From the NCBI GenBank assembly GCA_965230925.1, contig OZ246403.1, positions 138,455 to 202,454 on the forward strand: 64,000 nucleotides of DNA. The letters run 5' to 3'. The stretch comes from an uncultured Candidatus Saccharibacteria bacterium. Lineage in GTDB: Bacteria > Patescibacteriota > Minisyncoccia > Phycocordibacterales > JACOZG01. The notes under the pieces were generated by a model. It was not told the origin of the DNA, did not search any database, and saw nothing but the letters and a program-made list of their open reading frames with translations. The position numbers and the translations under genes are program-made. Of the stretch, positions 2,224 to 11,619 are shown piece after piece. Each line of letters begins with the position of its first letter. Within the stretch, counting starts at the first letter, position 1.

Positions 2224-4140
2224 TTAGAGAATAGTCTCGGGCTCGACATTAATAATAAATCGAGGCGGTAATGCCTTCAGACTAGCAAGTAATTCTTCCT
2301 CTGGCCACCGCTTGGGCTCGAGTTTAAGGAGCAGGTGCATGATGTATTCTCCCTTCACTTCCGAGGTAAAAGCGGGGAATGTTTCTGGTTCATAATCATT
2401 GAGTGAGGTCGCGAGGTGTTGGATCTCAGGAAGAATCTCGAGTCGTTTACCTTCCCGAGTAATTTTTAATAACAACTTAAACGGCGGATAACCAAAGCGC
2501 TCGCGATCAGTAATTTCTTTACGATAAAACTCAAGCAAGTTTCCGGTCATCGCTTGCTCAAAGAATGGCCAATCACCGTGCTTGGTCTGAACGAGAAATT
2601 GCTTGGTCGCCAGTTCCCGCGCGCGCAAGAGTAAGTTAAAAGCCTTCTCGCCAATGCGAAAATCGGGAATTGTAAACAATCCATCAAGCGACACCACCGC
2701 CACGTTCTCTACTTTATCTTTCAAGTAATGTAGCGCGAGCTCGGTCCCAAGAAGACAAGCTCCCGGCGTAGCAAAAAAACGTGAAATAATTTCTTTGGCT
2801 TTCTTGCCTGTCGGCGCCAAATCACTATCGAGCCGGAAAATTTCGAGGTCGGGGACCAGCTTCTTTAGTGCGAGCTCAACACCCTCGATAGCAATGCCGA
2901 GTTGCTCGAGCCGCCAGCCGCCGCAGTTGCGACAGCGTTCTTCTACCGCTCTTGTCTCACGACATTTATGGCAAACGAGGCGGTAATCGGCGGCCGCCCC
3001 ACCACCATCGGTGCGGAAGCGATGTAAGACCATTGGATTTGCGCAACGCCGACAGCGAATACTCTCGCCGCAATCACGACAAATAATGAGCGGCGATGTC
3101 CCTCGACGATTAACGAGAAAGAAGCTACGTTCGCCGCGGCGCATGGCTTGAGCCAAGAGCCACTCGAGACGCGCAGTGACAGGACGGAATTCCTCACCAG
3201 TTTCGCGCTCGAAGGGAATAATTTCTTGCCGCGCCGGAGAAAAGGCGCGGTGCTTCAACGGTGAGGCAGACATAATCTCGCCGCGCTCCACGCGGTGATT
3301 AGTTTCTGACCGCAACAAGGTGTCACCAAAATAAATTTTACAACCGAGCGCTGAAGCAAAAAATTCTCCAAACCGTCGATAATCAAGAAAGGGTCGCGAG
3401 AGTTGCTTATAACTTCCTGAACTCTCACGATCAAACACAATTGAACCGAGATCTGCCCGCGGGAGAGAAAGGAAGGCGGGTGTGGCTAAAACAAGCACCG
3501 GATGCGACTGGCTCACGGCGTCACGCCAATTTTCCCACAACACCTTCGAACCCAGTTTACTGTGGAGGATAAACATATATTCGCGAATCCCTTTCTCGAG
3601 AAGTGTCGCGGCGTGCTCGATCTCGGCCACCGTCGGAAGAATGAGAAAAACGGAAGCATTACGCGCAAACTCCGAGCGAATGAGGCTCTTGTAGAAAGCG
3701 AGTCGCTCAACTTCTGGTTCTTGAAGGGCAAAAAGTTCGGGATGCTTACGCGGCAAACGCTTAACTTCCTTTTTCACCGTGGGCAACTTTTCCTTCCCGC
3801 TCAAGTAACGATCAAGAACGGGCTGGCTAACCACGCTCTTTAACACCTGGCCCAAACTGGAAGCAAAATGATCCGACGCTCTCCGGGCGGCGTCAAGAAA
3901 GCTGGGCAACAGGAAATTACTAACCGACGCCGTGGGCAACTTCTTGAGCTGGAAACTGGCTCCCCGAAGGCTCGTTTTCTGCGCCGCGGCATCAGTAACC
4001 GCTGTAATAATCGCCGGCACCTTCTTGCCACGAACATTAACCTCGAGCAAAGAGCCGAGCATAGGGGGCTCTTTGGCAAAGTAAGACAGCCGATCTCTAA
4101 AAACACCGCGGGCAATGGGTAATACTTCCACTACTTTCAT
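2224..4140 (-). CDS. priA: primosomal protein N' (PriA helicase)
   Basis: Helicase domains plus Cys4 zinc-binding cluster CRDCG..CRRCANPMVLH. The ORF extends to 4221, but the PriA-typical N-terminus MKVVEVLPIA begins at 4140, so I take 4140 as the start. Confidence 0.85.
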   Translation of the reverse strand: MKVVEVLPIARGVFRDRLSYFAKEPPMLGSLLEVNVRGKKVPAIITAVTDAAAQKTSLRGASFQLKKLPTASVSNFLLPSFLDAARRASDHFASSLGQVLKSVVSQPVLDRYLSGKEKLPTVKKEVKRLPRKHPELFALQEPEVERLAFYKSLIRSEFARNASVFLILPTVAEIEHAATLLEKGIREYMFILHSKLGSKVLWENWRDAVSQSHPVLVLATPAFLSLPRADLGSIVFDRESSGSYKQLSRPFLDYRRFGEFFASALGCKIYFGDTLLRSETNHRVERGEIMSASPLKHRAFSPARQEIIPFERETGEEFRPVTARLEWLLAQAMRRGERSFFLVNRRGTSPLIICRDCGESIRCRRCANPMVLHRFRTDGGGAAADYRLVCHKCRETRAVEERCRNCGGWRLEQLGIAIEGVELALKKLVPDLEIFRLDSDLAPTGKKAKEIISRFFATPGACLLGTELALHYLKDKVENVAVVSLDGLFTIPDFRIGEKAFNLLLRARELATKQFLVQTKHGDWPFFEQAMTGNLLEFYRKEITDRERFGYPPFKLLLKITREGKRLEILPEIQHLATSLNDYEPETFPAFTSEVKGEYIMHLLLKLEPKRWPEEELLASLKALPPRFIINVEPETIL

Positions 4141-4176
4141 TGCTTTAGAAGATAACACGATGATAAAATAAACTGA

Positions 4177-4998
4177 ATGCCGAGCGAGAAGTACATCGGC
4201 GCTTTGGAAGTGGCGGGGCATGATGAAAAAAAGCTCGCCGCTCTTGAGTCTTTGTGCCGCGAAGGGAAGGTGAAAGCCAAACTCGTGGGTAATTCTTGGT
4301 ACGTGACTGAATCAGTGCGAGATAATCTCAAGGCGCATCTCTCAGAATTTAAGCCAAAAACAAACTATCTCCACCACGCCGAACCAGCTGGTCGAGCGGT
4401 GGCGGCGCTTGCGGTAGTCATTGCCCTTGGTATTGGCCTTGCGGCTGAAGGACAAGTTAGTTCTACAATCGCTACGCGCCTCAAAGAAAATGAGGTGGGT
4501 ACTCCAGCACTCACGGCAAGCCTTGCTCCCGTGTTCCGAGATGTTACCGAGGCGCTCGCGGCACTCTTTGAAGATATTTCTCGGATGAAAAATTATGTTA
4601 GTGATCAGTGGTTCTATTATGGTTCACGGATCAAGCTAGCTTGGGGAGGCTTCTTAACGGAAGAAGAAACGCAAAAAATAGAGCAGGTGGCTAACACCGT
4701 CAACACTGGCACCACAATTGATCGCGAACAATTGCGCGCGGAAATTCGAGAAGAATTAAGTGCGGCCCTGCGCGCGAGTGGCGTCCCAGCGGAAGTTACC
4801 CAGCAAGGCCTAATCGTCGTGCCTTCTACCGGCGATCCGGCCACCGACCGCCTGAGCATCTCGGAAATTAACGCTCTTTTCTCCGACGAGGTAAGCGTGC
4901 GCTTCGACGAAAGTGGTCGAGCGGGAGTCATTACACCCAAGTTTAAGACCGGGGAATCAAACGACTACCTCTTTCTCCTAACGCCGGTGAATCACTAA
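4177..4998 (+). CDS. hypothetical membrane protein (one TM helix near residue 80)
   Basis: Long ORF, divergent from priA; TM segment AVAALAVVIALGIGLAA; no recognisable domain. Confidence 0.5.
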   Translation: MPSEKYIGALEVAGHDEKKLAALESLCREGKVKAKLVGNSWYVTESVRDNLKAHLSEFKPKTNYLHHAEPAGRAVAALAVVIALGIGLAAEGQVSSTIATRLKENEVGTPALTASLAPVFRDVTEALAALFEDISRMKNYVSDQWFYYGSRIKLAWGGFLTEEETQKIEQVANTVNTGTTIDREQLRAEIREELSAALRASGVPAEVTQQGLIVVPSTGDPATDRLSISEINALFSDEVSVRFDESGRAGVITPKFKTGESNDYLFLLTPVNH

Positions 4999-5745
4999 AT
5001 GATCAGCCTCACGCCCGCTAAACTTGAATTCTCGGTGTCGCCCGGCCAAAGCGTAACTAAGCTGATTACGCTTAAAAACGAGAGCGCGGAGAACCTAGTG
5101 GGGGAAGTGTTGATCGAGAACTTCGGCCCCGAGCAATATGCGCTCAATCGCTTTCTCACACCTGGCGTACGCACCTTTGCGCTTGGGGCGGGAGAAACAC
5201 GCAGCCTACCCATCACCGTCAGCTTGCCTGCCAATCAAGGTCCGGGCGGCCTCTACACCTCGGTGGTCACCAGCTTTCGCCTCGCGAGCGAGACTGTAGC
5301 CAAAGCAGAAAGTCGCTTAGCCAGCCTCGTCTTTGTAAAAGTCCCTGGCCAAGCAAAAGAAGAGGGGCAACTAACCAACTTTCAAAAACAAGAAAACTCT
5401 CTGTATCTAACTTTCAAAAACACCGGCAATGTTTATCTCAATCCATATGGCGGTGTCAAAATCAAAAATTCAATTTCTGGCGCCGAACAAATTATTTCTG
5501 TCGATCCTTGGTTCGTGCTTCCTGGGGATACTCGGATTCGCGAAATCGAAATTAAAAACTCGCTAGGCCTTGGTCGCTGGCAAGCCACCGCAGAACTAAA
5601 CAGGGGTTATGGCGACCTCATCGACACCCGCGCCATCGCCTTCTGGATCTTACCGCCAATTTGGACGATGGTGGTTGTTGGACTTGTGATTTTGGCTGTC
5701 TTGTTTGGCCTTGGTTGGAAATTCTGGCGACGTGGTAAAATTTAA
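4999..5745 (+). CDS. hypothetical beta-rich protein with C-terminal TM anchor
   Basis: Starts immediately after the TAA of the preceding ORF in the same frame; Ig-like or chaperone-like beta-strand pattern; C-terminal TM plus basic tail WKFWRRGKI. Confidence 0.5.
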   Translation: MISLTPAKLEFSVSPGQSVTKLITLKNESAENLVGEVLIENFGPEQYALNRFLTPGVRTFALGAGETRSLPITVSLPANQGPGGLYTSVVTSFRLASETVAKAESRLASLVFVKVPGQAKEEGQLTNFQKQENSLYLTFKNTGNVYLNPYGGVKIKNSISGAEQIISVDPWFVLPGDTRIREIEIKNSLGLGRWQATAELNRGYGDLIDTRAIAFWILPPIWTMVVVGLVILAVLFGLGWKFWRRGKI

Positions 5746-5748
5746 AAT

Positions 5749-6489
5749 ATGAAATGGGGCTGGGGATTAATTATTTTGACCTGCTTACTCGGCGCACAAG
5801 GGGCGGCGGCGTATGTAGCCTCGAGCAATAATTATAGAATCCAAACCGACAGCGTTAATGTGGGCGGCGGACTTTCAACTTCGACTAATTACGCTATGGA
5901 AAGCACGGCGGGGGAAATTGCGAGTGGGGAATCAAGTAGTACTAATTACAAAATCAAGGCTGGTTATCAGCAAATGCTCGTGAGTTCAATCTCAATCTCA
6001 GCGCCAAGCGATGTGAGCTTGGGTTCTATTGATGGCACCACGGGCGGCAGTGCGCTTGGCTCAACCGCTTGGACCGTGATTACCGACAACGCTGCTGGTT
6101 ACATTTTAGCCGTCCGCTCAAGCACTAATCCGGCTCTCACTTCTGGTGGAAACAGCGTTAGCAATTACACACCCGCTGGCGCCACACCTGATTACACTTG
6201 GTCGGTGGCTGCGAGTGCCAGCGAATTCGGCTTTAGTCCTGAAGGCACGCACGTGGTCCAGCGTTATCTCGACAATGGATCAAGCTGTAATGCTGGCGCA
6301 AGCAACAACACCAACACTTGCTGGGATCCATTTTCCACCTCCAACACCACCGTAGCCTCAAGCGCAAGCGCCAACTCTCCCAGCGGCACGGCCACCACCC
6401 TTAAGCTCCAAGCCGAACTCGGCGCTGACCTCGAGCCCACCGACGGCGCCTACTCAGCCACCATTATTGCCACCGCCACCGCGCAATGA
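5749..6489 (+). CDS. secreted Ser/Thr/Asn-rich protein
   Basis: Signal peptide MKWGWGLIILTCLLGAQGAAA; repeated xTNY motifs; low-complexity S/T/A-rich C-terminus. Confidence 0.5.
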   Translation: MKWGWGLIILTCLLGAQGAAAYVASSNNYRIQTDSVNVGGGLSTSTNYAMESTAGEIASGESSSTNYKIKAGYQQMLVSSISISAPSDVSLGSIDGTTGGSALGSTAWTVITDNAAGYILAVRSSTNPALTSGGNSVSNYTPAGATPDYTWSVAASASEFGFSPEGTHVVQRYLDNGSSCNAGASNNTNTCWDPFSTSNTTVASSASANSPSGTATTLKLQAELGADLEPTDGAYSATIIATATAQ

Positions 6490-8516
6490 TTAAACTCGCC
6501 TCGCTCAAAATTATCGCCGCCGCCATTCTTCTTTTAATCGTCGGCGGCATCGGGCTCAGAACCTTCGCCGCTAACGATAGTGTAAATGTGAGCCTCGAAA
6601 TTGCTTGTCCGGGAGACGACTGCGCCCCCTCAGGAGGTGGTGGCGGGCCGCCCCCACCTCCTCCGCCGCCTCCGCCACCGAGCCCGATATTGGGCTGCAC
6701 CGACTCCGATGCCACCAATTACAACGCTTCAGCCACCCAAGATGATGGTTCTTGCGTGTACCCCAGCGACGCCGTTCCAAATGTCTCTGACTTCGACGGT
6801 GAATACGACGAGGATAATGAAGAAATTGATTTAAGCTGGACCAACCCCGATTTCCCCGAATTTGCCAGTGTTCGTATTATGCGAAGCACCAGCTTTTTCC
6901 CCACTAACCCAAGCAGTGGCGACCTTGTATACACCGGTAGCGGCGAAAGTGCCGTCGACAATGATGTAGAACCGGGCACCACCTACTATTACGCCATCTT
7001 TGTTCGCAATACCAATGGCGATTATTCATCAGGCGCAGTTACGAGCGTGAATGTGCCCGAGCCAGAAGAAGAGCCACCGGAAGAAGAACCAGAGGACGAA
7101 GAACCGCCGGTTGATGAGGACGGAAACGGTATTCCTGACGATGAGGAACCGCCGGACCCCTTCGCCGATCTACCACAAGCGCCAATTGTTGACCCTCTTG
7201 TGGAAGTTCTAAACTTTGGCGACTTTATCTTCGTTCAACCAGGCGAGGGGAGGCAATTCTTCGGTAGTGGCAGTGTGCTCCGGATTAATGGCAAAAAAGA
7301 TCTGACTGTTCTCCTGGAGGCAAACAAGGTACCGGGGAATCTAAAAACCATCGCTATAACTCTGCGCGACCCAAGCGATTGGAAAAAAACTTTTTCTTTT
7401 CTCCTTAAATTAAATGAAACGGGAACAGCCTACACCGCCACCATTGCTCCGCTTGGGAGATCGGGTAATTATCCGGTTTATATTTCTATCGTCGACTTCC
7501 AAAATCAAAGTATAAAAAGAATTGAGGGGCGCCTTCTCGTGGCCGCGGCCGGAGCCGCACCAATAGCGAATATCGCAGGAAGAATCGCTTCACCTTTTGT
7601 TGTCGCATCCGGTCTTATCCTTGGTGTGGCCGAAGGATTTTCGCTTGTTGCGCATATCAAATCATTTTCTGATCTCTATTGGCTTCTCCTTCACGGCTTC
7701 AACCTCATCACCCGCTTCTTCGGCTTCCGGAAAAAGGTTAAACCTTGGGGCGTGGTCTACGACTCAGTAACCAAGCGACCGCTTGACCCAGCTTACGTGA
7801 TCGTGAAGCAATCCGACAGCGACGTAAACACAGCCATCACCGACCTCGACGGCCGCTACGGCTTTTTACTCCAATCCGGAACCTACTCTCTGATGGCAAA
7901 CAAAACCCACTATCAATTTCCCTCGGTAAAGCTCGCAGGAAGAACGAGCGATGAGCTCTACGATAATCTCTACCATGGCGGCGACTTCCAAACCCTCACT
8001 GGTGAAGTGATTAATCGCAATATTCCGCTCGACCCAATTGCCTTCGACTGGAATGAATTTGCAAAAGATAAGCAGGGCTTCTTCATTCTCCACACCAAGA
8101 AGGAGAAGCGACGCGCGCGCCTTCTCAACGGCGTTTTCATTATCGGCTTTGCCCTCTCGGCCTACAACCTCGTGTTCAACCCGAGCTGGTTAAACATTCT
8201 CGCGATCGCCTTCTATCTCGCGACGCCACTCGGCCGTCTCTGGTGGCGCCACCGCCGACCCGTCGTACAAGTGAAAAGTCTCACAAGTGGCTTGCCTTCG
8301 CCGTACGCTATCGTGAAAGCGTTTATTCCGAAAGTTAATCAACAAGTGCGTCAGGTGGTGGCGGATCAATTGGGTCGCTTCTTCCTTCTCACCCCGCCAG
8401 GGGAATATTATCTCACCGTAGAAGAAAAACAGGATGATGGCACCTACAAAAAAGTTCTGGAGACTCCTCCGCTACTTCTCTCTCGCGGTGTGCTAGATAA
8501 AAACTTAGTTTTCTAG
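6486..8516 (+). CDS. large multidomain envelope protein (signal anchor, G5-P12 linker, FN3-like domain, acidic PE-rich linker, TM segments, CarboxypepD_reg-like modules)
   Basis: ATGA overlap with the upstream gene; poly-Pro encoded by mixed codons; FN3-like consensus DLSWTNP...TYYYAIFVRNTNGDYSS; CarbopepD-reg-like VYDSVTKRPLDPAYVIVKQ..DLDGRYGF. Confidence 0.6.
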   Translation: MIKLASLKIIAAAILLLIVGGIGLRTFAANDSVNVSLEIACPGDDCAPSGGGGGPPPPPPPPPPPSPILGCTDSDATNYNASATQDDGSCVYPSDAVPNVSDFDGEYDEDNEEIDLSWTNPDFPEFASVRIMRSTSFFPTNPSSGDLVYTGSGESAVDNDVEPGTTYYYAIFVRNTNGDYSSGAVTSVNVPEPEEEPPEEEPEDEEPPVDEDGNGIPDDEEPPDPFADLPQAPIVDPLVEVLNFGDFIFVQPGEGRQFFGSGSVLRINGKKDLTVLLEANKVPGNLKTIAITLRDPSDWKKTFSFLLKLNETGTAYTATIAPLGRSGNYPVYISIVDFQNQSIKRIEGRLLVAAAGAAPIANIAGRIASPFVVASGLILGVAEGFSLVAHIKSFSDLYWLLLHGFNLITRFFGFRKKVKPWGVVYDSVTKRPLDPAYVIVKQSDSDVNTAITDLDGRYGFLLQSGTYSLMANKTHYQFPSVKLAGRTSDELYDNLYHGGDFQTLTGEVINRNIPLDPIAFDWNEFAKDKQGFFILHTKKEKRRARLLNGVFIIGFALSAYNLVFNPSWLNILAIAFYLATPLGRLWWRHRRPVVQVKSLTSGLPSPYAIVKAFIPKVNQQVRQVVADQLGRFFLLTPPGEYYLTVEEKQDDGTYKKVLETPPLLLSRGVLDKNLVF

Positions 8517-8635
8517 TAAACTTTTTCTCGGAAAGTGTTCCAACATCTCCAACCCTCCTTTCACACATCACTTCTTGCCCAACCAAGATCTTACCGGGCA
8601 GATTGACGATCGGGAGGAACACACCCCAACCAGAT

Positions 8636-8686
8636 GGATCCCAACTTGCCGCGCCCGTTTTTGCAAGTTGGGATCCTTTTATTTTG
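8636..8686 (+). terminator. strong rho-independent terminator (14-bp stem ggatcccaacttgc/gcaagttgggatcc + T-run)
   Basis: Perfect inverted repeat followed by TTTTATTTT. Confidence 0.75.
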
Positions 8687-8773
8687 CTCAACCAACCTTG
8701 ACTTTTTTTAATAAAGTGATAGTTATTTAAATAGTTTCGTTTACGTTTTAGAGGACCTGTTAGGAGGTGAACC

Positions 8774-9319
8774 TTGAAATACTTGGCAGTCATAAGTTCC
8801 GTTATCGCCACATTGGCGATTTTGGCCTTCGGGGTACAAATCTGGAAAACCAACACCCCGCAAAATGTTGCTAGCTGGTTAATGTGGCTAATTCTCAACA
8901 CGATATTATTGTTCGCCTCGATTTCCGCAGGCAATAAGAAGTCATGGATGTTGAGTCTGGGCTACGTAATTGGAGGAGCAGCAGGAACAGCCGCGTTGCT
9001 TTTCCGAGGTCAATGGCATTGGGGAAAAACAGAAACAGTTTGTGCTGTTGGCGCAGCAGTTAGCATGATGGTGTGGAAAAAACTAGGTCCCAAAAAGGGC
9101 TTGGTCGTTAGTGCGATTGCAATCACCATGGCAGGAATACCCGCTCTGAGCGAAGCGTGGCAAACCCACAATCGTGAAAGCTGGTGGCTTTGGACAATCA
9201 TTGCTTTCTGCTGCCTCCTCACCACCATCGGCGCAGAGCGGTGGACTCTGCAAGATCGCTTGTTCCCTATTGTCAGTATGATTTTCAATGGCACGATGGC
9301 CGTCCTTGTTCTTTTGTAA
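8774..9319 (+). CDS. polytopic membrane protein, paralog 1 (possible PQ-loop/PnuC-like fold)
   Basis: TTG start with strong SD AGGAGGT; about 6 predicted TM helices; TPQ motif; homologous to the downstream ORF. Confidence 0.55.
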   Translation: MKYLAVISSVIATLAILAFGVQIWKTNTPQNVASWLMWLILNTILLFASISAGNKKSWMLSLGYVIGGAAGTAALLFRGQWHWGKTETVCAVGAAVSMMVWKKLGPKKGLVVSAIAITMAGIPALSEAWQTHNRESWWLWTIIAFCCLLTTIGAERWTLQDRLFPIVSMIFNGTMAVLVLL

Positions 9320-9511: not shown

Positions 9512-10093
9512 TTGTCAGTAAAAGATATTCTTTCGGCAGCTGCCGGATTACTGTTCCTTGCAGGTTATGTTCCATATATCATTAGTATCTTTCGGGGTAA
9601 CAAGCCGGCAAAGGCCTCCTGGTTAATCTGGGTTAGCCTCGACACCATTAGTTTGGTCGCCATGTATTACGAGAAAACGGTAAACGGCCAAATTCTTGGT
9701 ACAGTAGCAGGAGCCTGGGTAGTTACGGCCCTCGCGATGAAGTACGGCAAACCGGGGTGGAGCAACCTTGATAAGTTCTGCTTGGTTGGGGCAGTCGTGG
9801 GAATCGCTTTGTGGCAATACTTCGATAGTCCAGTCTTGGGTTTGGTTACCAGTCAGGCGGTCACTTTTTTGGGGTCAGTTCCAACATTCGTTTCAGCTTG
9901 GAAAGATCCCTCGCAAGAAGACCGTTTTGCCTGGACTCTCTACTGGCTATCTTGTGTTGCTGCAATGTTTGCAATTCCCTCACCGACAATTGCCCACGTT
10001 ACTCAACCTACAACCTTCTTTATCATCGAGAGTGTCATGATGTACTTACTCTTTGTCAGAAAAAGAGTGAGAATCATTCCTGTTACCGATTAA
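9512..10093 (+). CDS. polytopic membrane protein, paralog 2
   Basis: TTG start with strong SD AGGAAGGAGGG; alignable to paralog 1 (ASWL.W..L.T, SAW..WT motifs). Confidence 0.55.
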   Translation: MSVKDILSAAAGLLFLAGYVPYIISIFRGNKPAKASWLIWVSLDTISLVAMYYEKTVNGQILGTVAGAWVVTALAMKYGKPGWSNLDKFCLVGAVVGIALWQYFDSPVLGLVTSQAVTFLGSVPTFVSAWKDPSQEDRFAWTLYWLSCVAAMFAIPSPTIAHVTQPTTFFIIESVMMYLLFVRKRVRIIPVTD

Positions 10094-10611: not shown

Positions 10612-11619
10612 ATGGCAAAGAAAAGGAAGGCCTCCAAGCGTATGGGGGTCAAGGAAACGGGGGCGAGATCGCCCAGGAAAAGATCACCACAAAAGAGAAT
10701 GAGCACGGAAACAGATTCGGTAATTCCGGTCACCGTAGTGAAAACTCCTTCAACACCCCAAGTTGACGTGAAAGAAATGGCAAGGGAAACCGGAATTCCA
10801 CTCGACGCCATTAAGTTGGCGCTCGGTTTGCCGACTGACATCTCATTTTCTGATCAGATGTACTTTGGGGACCTCAAACACCTCGGTCCTCTGTGTCGAG
10901 GTCGGGTCCTCATCCAAACGAATCACTTCGCGGCAGAAGCCATCGACCCCGACAAGCTCGAGCGGGTCGTCCTTCCTCTTACACACCAACTGCACAAGCT
11001 AGCCTGTGCCGAATTGGAAAAGGCCAACACCGTTGGATGCAGCAGGGAACGTTGGCGAGAAATCGCCGACGCTCTCGAACCAGGGTCATCGACCTGGTTC
11101 AAAGCTCAAGCGAGAGTAGAAGACATGGGCTTCGAAGAAATTGTCAACGAAACCAATCTTCGCAATTTGATTACAACTCTGAATGGGGGCAAGATCCCCA
11201 TCGGCAGTGGGTTATGGAGCAGGGCAGTTGATGTCTTCCGGGGCTTACTCGAAACAGACTTGCGACGAGCTGGCACGAATGAAAACGTCGAATGGCTACT
11301 CGCACAACGCCAGGGGTTGGAACACCTTGTGTCATTGGATTTCTTTTACAATTGCATGGAGGAATGGTTCCGTGTCACCGACGATGCGGCTGCCCTCGCT
11401 GAAAAACTAGCGGGCAGCGACATCAACCAAAGAAGTCTCGCCTGGAAGGTGGGATCGCAAAAACTCAGTGGAATACTCAGTGATGAGATGAAAACGAACG
11501 ACGAGATTCCACTCGAACGACTCGTCGCAATCTATCAGATGGCTCCTGCAGGAAGCGAAGTCAAGCAGGAAGCGATCCTGAGAATGTCCGAACTCTTCCA
11601 AACATCGGCAGCGGCGTAA
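10612..11619 (+). CDS. hypothetical protein with Lys/Arg-rich N-terminus
   Basis: SD AGGGAG 8 nt upstream of the ATG; TTGACG -35-like box upstream; all-helical body without recognisable motifs. Confidence 0.5.
   Translation: MAKKRKASKRMGVKETGARSPRKRSPQKRMSTETDSVIPVTVVKTPSTPQVDVKEMARETGIPLDAIKLALGLPTDISFSDQMYFGDLKHLGPLCRGRVLIQTNHFAAEAIDPDKLERVVLPLTHQLHKLACAELEKANTVGCSRERWREIADALEPGSSTWFKAQARVEDMGFEEIVNETNLRNLITTLNGGKIPIGSGLWSRAVDVFRGLLETDLRRAGTNENVEWLLAQRQGLEHLVSLDFFYNCMEEWFRVTDDAAALAEKLAGSDINQRSLAWKVGSQKLSGILSDEMKTNDEIPLERLVAIYQMAPAGSEVKQEAILRMSELFQTSAAA

Follow-up and report, generated by a model that had tools for sequence, protein, structure and literature searches.

A conserved four-gene locus of Paceibacteria-type bacteria as a putative usher-less donor-strand surface assembly

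Introduction

In chaperone-usher pili, the chaperones PapD and FimC lend a β-strand to the pilins, and the cleft of PapD is marked by a conserved basic pair, Arg8 and Lys112, and by its G1 donor strand. Bacteria of the candidate phyla radiation (CPR/Patescibacteria), which make up a large share of bacterial diversity, live attached to other cells, and to our knowledge the machinery of this attachment is barely known. The present analysis concerns a locus of four consecutive open reading frames, ORF1 to ORF4, all on the plus strand, at positions 4177–8516 of a 64-kb window of contig OZ246403.1; the window is the whole stretch of DNA that was analysed (64,000 nt), and all coordinates follow its numbering. 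It is fairly probable that this locus encodes an usher-less surface assembly which works by donor-strand complementation, as chaperone-usher and Pam pili do, and which is fitted to a cell without an outer membrane.

Two described systems stand closest to it. The Pam pilus of Ca. Mycosynbacter amalyticus employs the FimC/PapD-like chaperones PamC and PamD, which bear C-terminal transmembrane (TM) helices; PamT is its proposed tip, and PamR, with an N-terminal strand, FnIII domains and a TM segment, is its proposed anchor (Troman et al. 2026, bioRxiv 10.64898/2026.03.03.709456). WxL, DUF916 and Paceibacteria are not mentioned in this preprint. In the second system, the WxLIP protein, composed of DUF916, DUF3324 and a TM helix, completes the sandwich of a WxL protein with a donated strand (PMC10599100). 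A 2026 structure of Enterococcus faecium WxLIP, PDB 9i25, carries the entry title "bound to long WxL". In the literature searched, no paper connects WxL proteins with donor-strand systems.

The four ORFs are tightly packed. ORF1 (4177–4998, 273 aa) ends in a TAA stop codon (4996–4998) that is directly abutted by the ATG of ORF2 (4999–5745, 248 aa); a spacing of 3 nt separates ORF2 from ORF3 (5749–6489, 246 aa), and an ATGA overlap at 6486–6489 joins ORF3 to ORF4 (6486–8516, 676 aa). The initial annotation of this DNA had already described the packing and the overlap, together with a single TM segment in ORF1, a β-rich ORF2 with only a C-terminal TM anchor, a Sec-secreted, Ser/Thr/Asn-rich ORF3 with xTNY repeats, and a multidomain ORF4, and all of these descriptions are borne out by the features reported below. 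Absent from it were the relation to Pam through PamT, the HTH_17 domain of ORF1, the donor-strand motif of ORF4 and the lack of a signal peptide in ORF2.

Comparison with known systems

The locus lies outside each known family, since ORF3 scores below the PamT cutoff, pilins of the PamA/B type and WxL domains are missing, and there is no usher. It can be seen as a conserved CPR surface-assembly kit, related to the Pam pilus and to the Gram-positive WxL clusters, reduced, and not described before.

With the Pam system it shares its restriction to the CPR and the lack of both an usher and an ATPase. ORF2 has the fold type of the Pam chaperones as well as their C-terminal TM helix, and is likened to PamC and PamD by description; ORF3 is a sequence relative of PamT, itself a single-domain subunit. 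Short forms of ORF4 match the layout given for PamR, to which ORF4 is likened by layout only, and paired cysteines occur in the secreted parts of both systems. The differences are equally clear. The two-domain pilins PamA, PamB and PamE, each with an N-terminal sandwich, a linker donor strand and a truncated immunoglobulin (Ig) domain, were not found in the 64-kb window, whereas each extra pilin that the present family has in other lineages consists of a single domain with a donor strand of the classical N-terminal kind. Pam has two chaperones and the locus only one; ORF4 carries an additional multi-pass CarboxypepD_reg module and is longer by about 290 residues; and ORF1, with its HTH_17 domain and TM segment, has no described Pam counterpart. 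Moreover, the locus adjoins priA and mreB, unlike the Pam neighbourhood of ATP synthase genes, and its host is of the Paceibacteria type, while Pam is reported mainly in Saccharimonadia and Microgenomatia.

The WxL/Csc clusters of Lactobacillales and Bacillales resemble the locus in another way. ORF2 shares the WxLIP fold, a weak sequence similarity and the C-terminal TM helix, and the cluster logic is the same: an anchored two-Ig protein, a small secreted β-sandwich protein and a large multidomain protein. In WxL/Csc the sandwich of the partner is completed by a strand of the Ig protein, which is also what is proposed for ORF3. However, Pfam searches of 40 members of the ORF3 family and of ORF4 gave no WxL domain, Trp-x-Leu motifs are absent, DUF3324 is undetected by sequence, the ORF2 of the window has no signal peptide, and the host belongs to another phylum. 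ORF4, in addition, is an integral membrane protein and not a wall-bound WxL protein.

From the archaic chaperone-usher systems, such as Csu of Acinetobacter and CupE of Pseudomonas, the locus differs in having no outer-membrane usher and no periplasm, in its membrane-tethered chaperone and in its membrane-protein anchor, and sequence identity is 10–16%. The usher family PF00577 has no match in the four ORFs or their neighbours, and the TM segments of ORF4 are α-helical, with no β-barrel. Unlike TasA/TLP and the archaeal donor-strand fibres (AbpA bundling pili, cannulae), the locus has a dedicated chaperone-like gene. Neither TasA/camelysin (PF12389) nor a SipW-type signal peptidase gave Pfam matches in the four ORFs and the ORF3 family; the likeness to TasA stays at the level of the fold.

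ORF2, a membrane-anchored chaperone candidate

ORF2 consists of two tandem Ig-like β-sandwich domains (residues 1–217) and a C-terminal TM helix at residues 221–246 (nt 5659–5736), and it ends in a basic tail, WKFWRRGKI, after this helix. Its AlphaFold2 (AF2) monomer model, built from a 43-sequence alignment, has a predicted local distance difference test score (pLDDT) of 95.9. Foldseek searches with the AF2 models of ORF2 and ORF3, a check that the initial annotation had suggested, returned chaperones of the chaperone-usher and WxLIP types and pilins, respectively. For ORF2, the best PDB matches are the E. faecium WxLIP structures 9i1y and 9i25 (E = 1e-10), followed by dozens of chaperone-usher chaperones, including CfaA, FimC, CsuC, DraB and Caf1M (E = 1e-9 to 1e-7).

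At the level of sequence, PF06030 (WxLIP_PGBD/DUF916) is weakly matched by 30 of 43 ORF2 family members, with a best E of 5.9e-6, the window's own ORF2 being unmatched; PF11797 (DUF3324) has zero matches among the same 43. Because the fold match is joined by these PF06030 matches, the relation of ORF2 to WxLIP is one of distant homology and not mere analogy. This modifies an earlier view of the locus, in which its likeness to WxL loci was taken as purely architectural: that view stands for ORF3, which is not a WxL protein, but not for ORF2.

Two conserved positions add to this picture. A lysine or arginine occupies position 8 in all 43 family members, and an arginine or lysine occupies position 114 in 41 of them, within a conserved, G1-like strand, S-R-L-x-S-L-x-F-V-[RK]-V. 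K8, R114 and the strand recall the Arg8/Lys112 pair and the G1 strand of PapD. The model and its structural relatives suggest that ORF2 is a candidate for a membrane-anchored chaperone of PapD-like or WxLIP-like type.

ORF3, a pilin-like subunit related to PamT

ORF3 begins with a Sec signal peptide (residues 1–21, nt 5749–5811) that is cleaved between AAA and Y, the AxA site being conserved in the family. The protein is rich in Ser (16%), Thr (12%) and Asn (6.5%). Its mature part opens with three conserved repeats, S-S-T-N-Y-x-I-x-x-D-S-I-N-x-G-G (residues 22–76, nt 5812–5976), with SNNY, STNY and STNY at residues 26, 45 and 64. A pilin-like β-sandwich follows at residues 77–246 (nt 5977–6486), which contains the invariant cysteines C180 and C191 and the C-terminal strand G-x-Y-x-A-T-x-T-x-T-A. 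Dsb or thioredoxin genes adjoin the locus in two loci. In the AF2 monomer model, residues 77–246 reach a pLDDT above 90, and the repeat region stays below 50 and is unplaced.

The Foldseek matches of this model in the PDB are nearly all chaperone-usher pilins, namely the pilin domains of PapG and FimH, FimA, PapE, CfaB, CsuA/B and FimG; TasA (8aur, 9ikk) is also included, with probabilities up to 0.98 and E values of 0.009 to 0.3. The sole library match of ORF3 is NCBIfam NF058579, "CPR-type pilus protein PamT" (E = 2.5e-11, profile positions 10–141 of 241), with a score of 43.5 bits against a curated cutoff of 240 bits. The same model is matched by 38 of 40 ORF3 family members, with a best E of 5e-15, all far under the cutoff. 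Judged by these profile scores, ORF3 is a member of a PamT-related family of 911 clusters, and not a PamT equivalog.

Two other assignments of ORF3 were rejected. As a WxL-domain protein it would be expected neither to lack a Pfam WxL match throughout 40 family members nor to have WxL absent from its top fold matches; the segment that corresponds to the WxL motif reads W-T-V..G-Y-x-L. A lipoprotein was dismissed as well, the lipobox not being conserved and the AxA cleavage site being conserved.

ORF4, a putative membrane anchor and stalk

ORF4 is a multidomain protein; a leader stands at its N-terminus, and more TM segments follow. Its signal peptide (residues 1–28) is followed by a donor-strand-like motif, DSVNVSLEI (residues 31–39, nt 6576–6602), and by CPGDDC and a Gly5-Pro12 linker. 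A disulfide motif, GCTD..NYN..DDGSC (residues 70–90, nt 6693–6755), precedes an FnIII-like domain (about residues 100–190, nt 6783–7055), an acidic Pro/Glu linker and a β domain (about residues 240–355, nt 7203–7550). A TM segment lies at about residues 363–389 (nt 7572–7652). Beyond it, the protein continues with a highly conserved CarboxypepD_reg-type domain (residues 421–527, nt 7746–8066), a TM hairpin (about residues 546–588, nt 8121–8249) and a C-terminal β domain (residues 595–676).

In Pfam, ORF4 matches CarboxypepD_reg (E = 1e-11) and, weakly, Pur_ac_phosph_N. Its family of 633 clusters is conserved over the full length and includes relatives with fn3, and the invariant columns cluster at residues 421–527 (W421, G422, Y425, D426 ... 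P514, D516, P517, F520–E524). Since basic residues flank the last two soluble domains, both would be located in the cytoplasm; the CarboxypepD_reg-like domain is thus probably cytoplasmic, which would be atypical of such domains. Other lineages have a shorter ORF4-like gene (410–540 aa), which matches only positions 5–360 of the family hidden Markov model (HMM) and ends at the first TM segment, and the CarboxypepD_reg module is confined to the locus type with a long ORF4. By analogy with PamR, it is proposed that ORF4 is a membrane anchor and stalk whose N-terminal strand would plug the groove of a pilin.

Some minor similarities of ORF4 were also recorded. The disulfide motif, in its family-conserved form G-C-T-D-x-x-A-x-N-Y-N-x-x-A-x-x-D-D-G-S-C, weakly resembles residues 327–359 of the macrophage-expressed gene 1 protein (perforin-2, MPEG1; E = 0.03), and this was the sole match of PDB sequence searches with single proteins and family profiles of ORF1 to ORF4, which gave nothing useful. 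The short ORF4-like protein at L043:7689–8996 weakly matches, over its C-terminal 45 residues, NCBIfam NF053819 (E = 0.017), the EF2685/EF0750 family of sortase-dependent surface proteins, which is named from E. faecalis loci; this match may reflect the hydrophobic anchor only.

A donor-strand-like motif and two types of locus

Mature ORF4-like proteins, although very divergent, start with a short strand of alternating hydrophobic residues, and a flexible linker comes next. The motif was defined as [DENQST]-x-[VIFL]-x-[VIL]-x-[VILAQTGF]-x-[VI] within 28 residues past the leader, and it has the look of the N-terminal donor strands of chaperone-usher pilins. The same strand opens a further group of proteins: in 42 of 68 loci, an extra ORF3-like paralog, or a pair of them, is encoded just upstream of ORF2; each has a single domain, a length of about 215 aa and no STNY repeats.

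The motif occurs in 44 of 53 extra ORF3-like paralogs and in 48 of 70 ORF4-like proteins, and is found in none of 80 main ORF3 proteins, one of 70 ORF2 proteins and none of 45 ORF1 proteins, with a background of 0.4–7% per 30-residue window. This distribution suggests that the paralogs and ORF4 act as strand donors and that ORF3 is an acceptor only. A solely accepting ORF3 would be in line with PamT as the proposed tip.

The loci fall into two types. Where ORF4 is short, a shaft-type paralog is present in 32 of 41 loci; where it is long, as in the window, such a paralog is absent in 12 of 13 (Fisher p = 9e-6, a value that ignores the kinship of the loci). In keeping with the second type, an HMM scan of the whole 64-kb window revealed no second ORF3-like or Pam-like protein. 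Profile–profile comparisons for cryptic shared domains (ORF4 with ORF3, ORF1 with ORF4, ORF2 with ORF3) all remained below 10% probability.

Conservation of gene order

The arrangement of the genes was followed with HMMs of the four families in 80 species-representative loci, each with a relative of ORF3. An ORF2 homolog stands immediately 5' of ORF3 on the same strand in 71 of the 74 loci with room for it, and an ORF4 homolog stands immediately 3' on the same strand in 60 of 66, with three more farther downstream; an ORF1-like gene lies upstream in 30 of 68. This arrangement is far beyond chance, and the conservation of gene order across CPR genomes, which had been named as a check in the initial annotation, is thereby found, the homologs not being scattered. 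The named homologs of ORF2, ORF3 and ORF4 all belong to Patescibacteria/CPR (Vogelbacteria, Paceibacterota, Nomura-, Zambryski-, Magasanik-, Buchanan- and Roizmanbacteria), and a single search pattern places the locus in more than 100 species genomes. An occurrence outside the CPR was rejected: the loci L079, L083, L089 and L075 are labelled as Burkholderiales, Gammaproteobacteria (two) and Nanoarchaeia, but these labels are wrong, because the flanks are 66–90% identical in protein sequence to Nomurabacteria, Magasanikbacteria and other CPR loci.

Five species genomes have ORF2 and ORF3 fused in one frame (L012:6113–7735, L013:6077–7708, L015:2994–4640, L016:3862–5523 and L038:6032–7726). The order in these fusions is signal peptide, Ig domains, TM segment, short basic loop, second signal peptide with an AxA site, and mature ORF3, so that the TM helix of ORF2 and the signal peptide of ORF3 make a hairpin of two helices, and the AxA site for cleavage is kept. 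In this self-consistent topology the globular parts of ORF2 and ORF3 both lie on the outside of the membrane, which speaks for a direct functional connection between them. The unit can also be divided. Genome AAB468 has ORF1-ORF2 beside priA (L009:5186–6816) and ORF3-ORF4 beside mreB (L090:7001–9714), the latter preceded by an unrelated 302-aa protein; since this genome holds the two pairs apart, they are separable and both are kept.

That four unrelated hypothetical genes merely lie next to each other, with no joint function, could be read from the weak or missing matches of the window's own proteins in sequence libraries. However, this view is effectively refuted by the co-linearity (71/74 and 60/66), the five gene fusions, the complementary folds, the shared motif logic, and the tight packing, which includes a 4-nt overlap and only one terminator. 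The proposal of a dedicated cell-surface assembly, made in the initial annotation, thus gains substance from the chaperone fold of ORF2, the pilin fold of ORF3, the co-linearity and the fusions.

The flanking genes raise a different question. In the window, the locus is flanked by ppiase, fmt, def and priA at one end and by murA, mreB, holB and frr at the opposite end. This position between priA and murA/mreB, where synteny extends widely in several genomes, would suit a housekeeping envelope scaffold, wall-spanning or S-layer-anchoring, which would be a core part of the shape or envelope of Paceibacteria and not a host-contact appendage; so would the large and conserved ORF3 and ORF4 families (911 and 633 clusters) and the location of the most conserved part of ORF4 in a probably cytoplasmic domain. 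Nevertheless, the ORF2-ORF3-ORF4 triad also occurs in unrelated flanks, such as lspA/thioredoxin in Buchananbacteria, SecA/DsbA in Roizmanbacteria and others, and because of this recurrence the gene order is not merely inherited synteny. The pilin and chaperone folds, moreover, indicate fibre biology. A scaffold of this kind is rather improbable, and it concerns the biological role of the locus, being compatible with the same donor-strand mechanism.

Proposed mechanism of assembly

The donor-strand assembly favoured here can be set out as a series of steps, in which the protein–protein contacts, the order of assembly and the visible appendage are those that we infer. ORF3 would be exported by Sec, and its C-terminal Ig-like pilin domain would need a strand from another protein. 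ORF2, tethered by its C-terminal helix to the outer face of the membrane, would capture ORF3 by lending a strand of its first domain, which has a long F1-G1-like hairpin. The mature N-terminus of ORF4, with the pattern D-x-V-x-V-x-L-x-V and a flexible Gly/Pro linker, would then displace the chaperone strand and fill the groove of ORF3. In effect, ORF3 would become fixed to a long membrane-anchored stalk made of the FnIII-like and β domains of ORF4. In other lineages, one or two single-domain pilins may polymerise between an ORF3 tip and an ORF4 base, giving a true pilus. In the variant of the window, ORF3 could be a tip on a stalk or could polymerise through its STNY repeats; the former is more likely, because there is no shaft pilin and ORF4 is longer. 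ORF1, with a cytoplasmic HTH_17 domain, a TM segment and an outer domain, would be a candidate membrane-bound regulator or accessory.

Several points weigh against this scheme. Strand insertion is deduced from motifs and analogy, the structure models being those of monomers, and a filament has so far been observed in no Paceibacteria with the locus. The NCBIfam models of PamA, PamB, PamC, PamD, PamE and PamR are unmatched by ORF2, ORF4, the extra pilin paralogs and the short ORF4 forms. With 50–60% identity across orders, ORF3 is unusually conserved for an adhesin, and the housekeeping neighbours with their wide synteny mean that part of the co-linearity may be inherited and not selected. Tandem Ig folds such as those of ORF2 also occur in the unrelated proteins CEP192, hydin and RbmA, which are among its Foldseek matches. 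Finally, the ORF2 of the window and of its closest clade (P0003–P0007) has no signal peptide and begins at the first β-strand (MISLTPAKLE), whereas the more distant homologs all have one; this peculiarity of the clade makes the export of a folded ORF2 domain of about 220 aa hard to account for. The charge distribution around the TM helix of ORF2, with its basic tail, still predicts an outward-facing N-terminal domain.

Much of the same evidence can be arranged into a static complex of the WxL type, in which ORF2 would be the permanent anchor of ORF3, much as WxLIP is proposed to keep WxL proteins on the wall of Gram-positive cells, and ORF4 would be displayed separately beside them, with neither polymerisation nor strand exchange. 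WxLIP, whose structure was determined in complex with a WxL protein, is structurally nearest to ORF2, and the literature on WxLIP describes a stabilising, non-chaperone role (PMC10599100). The ORF2-ORF3 fusions suit a stable pair, the locus of the window is without a shaft pilin, and the high conservation of ORF3 is as expected of a structural partner. ORF3, however, has no WxL domain or motifs and resembles chaperone-usher pilins, and the N-terminal strand motif common to ORF4 and the extra pilins is hard to explain without strand donation. Additionally, fused ORF3 keeps its own cleavable signal peptide, which implies its release from ORF2, and the PamT relatives come from a system with real filaments. 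On balance, such a static complex is unlikely, and donor-strand assembly remains the preferred account of the locus.

If this account holds, a donor-strand system related to Pam, but differently built, is widespread in Paceibacteria-type lineages, with hundreds of protein clusters. Its logic would be modular: a chaperone and an acceptor subunit, shaft pilins in some loci, and an anchor that bears a strand. At least two architectural variants of the locus exist. One chaperone fold and one mechanism would unite the WxL clusters of Firmicutes, the Pam pili of the CPR and the chaperone-usher pili, which the literature searched treats apart, and testable predictions arise on how cells without an outer membrane build such fibres usher-free.

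A more far-reaching interpretation, whose parts we hold jointly to be doubtful, is that of a distinct, Paceibacteria-wide class of usher-less donor-strand appendages defined by three features. Its pilins would carry classical N-terminal donor strands and not the internal linker strand of Pam. Its tethered chaperone would bridge WxLIP, the CPR proteins PamC/D and the Gram-negative PapD-like chaperones, which, if true, would place the origin of chaperone-usher chaperones in monoderm-type cells. In the variant of the window, the shaft pilin would be replaced by a long anchor with the conserved, probably cytoplasmic CarboxypepD_reg module; this module and ORF1 would then relay what happens at the surface tip into the cytoplasm, as in contact sensing.

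ORF1, a putative regulator or accessory protein

ORF1 has one TM segment (residues 74–92, nt 4396–4452), preceded by a cytoplasmic HTH_17-like domain (about residues 5–55) and followed by a variable linker. In its family, Pfam HTH_17 is matched by 8 of 25 members, with a best E of 1e-9. Outside the cytoplasm, a conserved C-terminal domain of some 65 aa (residues 208–272, nt 4798–4992) has the consensus GLVVVPSTGD..FSD.V.V.FD.SG.AGVITP.F..YLF.LTP; among the 712 homologs of ORF1 it is present in two or three copies in many, and it is repeated in many other CPR proteins. In loci of the Nomurabacteria type, a gene for a small protein with only HTH and TM parts lies downstream of ORF4. The ToxR-like layout of ORF1 suggests, by analogy, a putative membrane-bound sensor or regulator or an assembly accessory, which is the weakest assignment of the four.

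A readthrough or fusion of ORF1 and ORF2, which would have supplied the signal peptide that ORF2 lacks, was considered and rejected, because close relatives show three frame relationships between the two genes, which overlap by 4 nt in L008, for instance, and stand 2 nt apart in another frame in L009. In the window, ORF1, ORF2 and ORF3 share one frame, with a lone TAA between ORF1 and ORF2 and TAA-AAT between ORF2 and ORF3. The sharing looks incidental, since relatives show other frame relationships, yet it eases fusion by the loss of a stop codon.

Transcription signals and neighbouring genes

On the other side of ORF1, priA lies divergently on the minus strand at 2224–4140 (or with its start at 4221), with weak PriA_3primeBD matches. 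By the priA start of the gene callers (4140), the gap between the two genes is 36 nt (4141–4176). It contains TTTAGA (4144–4149) and TGATAAAAT (4161–4169), the latter ending 7 nt 5' of the ATG of ORF1; TTTAGA...TGATAAAAT is a possible candidate promoter, from which a near-leaderless transcript would arise. The initial annotation had placed the locus downstream of a divergent priA promoter. The divergent orientation of priA is as it implied, but a consensus scan shows no promoter in the 36-nt gap. Inside the four-gene locus, consensus scans gave no promoter or terminator signals above chance, and no Rfam RNA family was found in the locus or nearby.

A terminator-like hairpin lies on the plus strand at 8636–8685, about 120–170 nt 3' of the stop codon of ORF4. 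It has a 14-bp stem (8636–8649 with 8663–8676), a 13-nt loop and the trailing sequence UUUUAUUUU (8677–8685). Its RNA folding energy is -26.9 kcal/mol (z = -4.3), and 0 of 200 shuffled sequences fold as well. This hairpin probably closes the four-gene transcription unit.

A few neighbouring reading frames complete the picture. A minus-strand ORF of 173 aa at 8413–8934, which runs across the 3' end of ORF4 into the region of the terminator, is called in the related contig L002 and not in L001, and is probably spurious. Between the small membrane proteins described next and murA, a 335-aa protein with a Lys/Arg-rich N-terminus and no Pfam match is encoded at 10612–11619. Past the terminator, 8774–9319 and 9512–10093 encode small multi-pass membrane proteins that have no convincing Pfam family and are mutual paralogs (27% identity, E = 2e-15). 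In Vogelbacteria (L003) and in L008, the ORF4 homolog is likewise followed by a gene of about this size.

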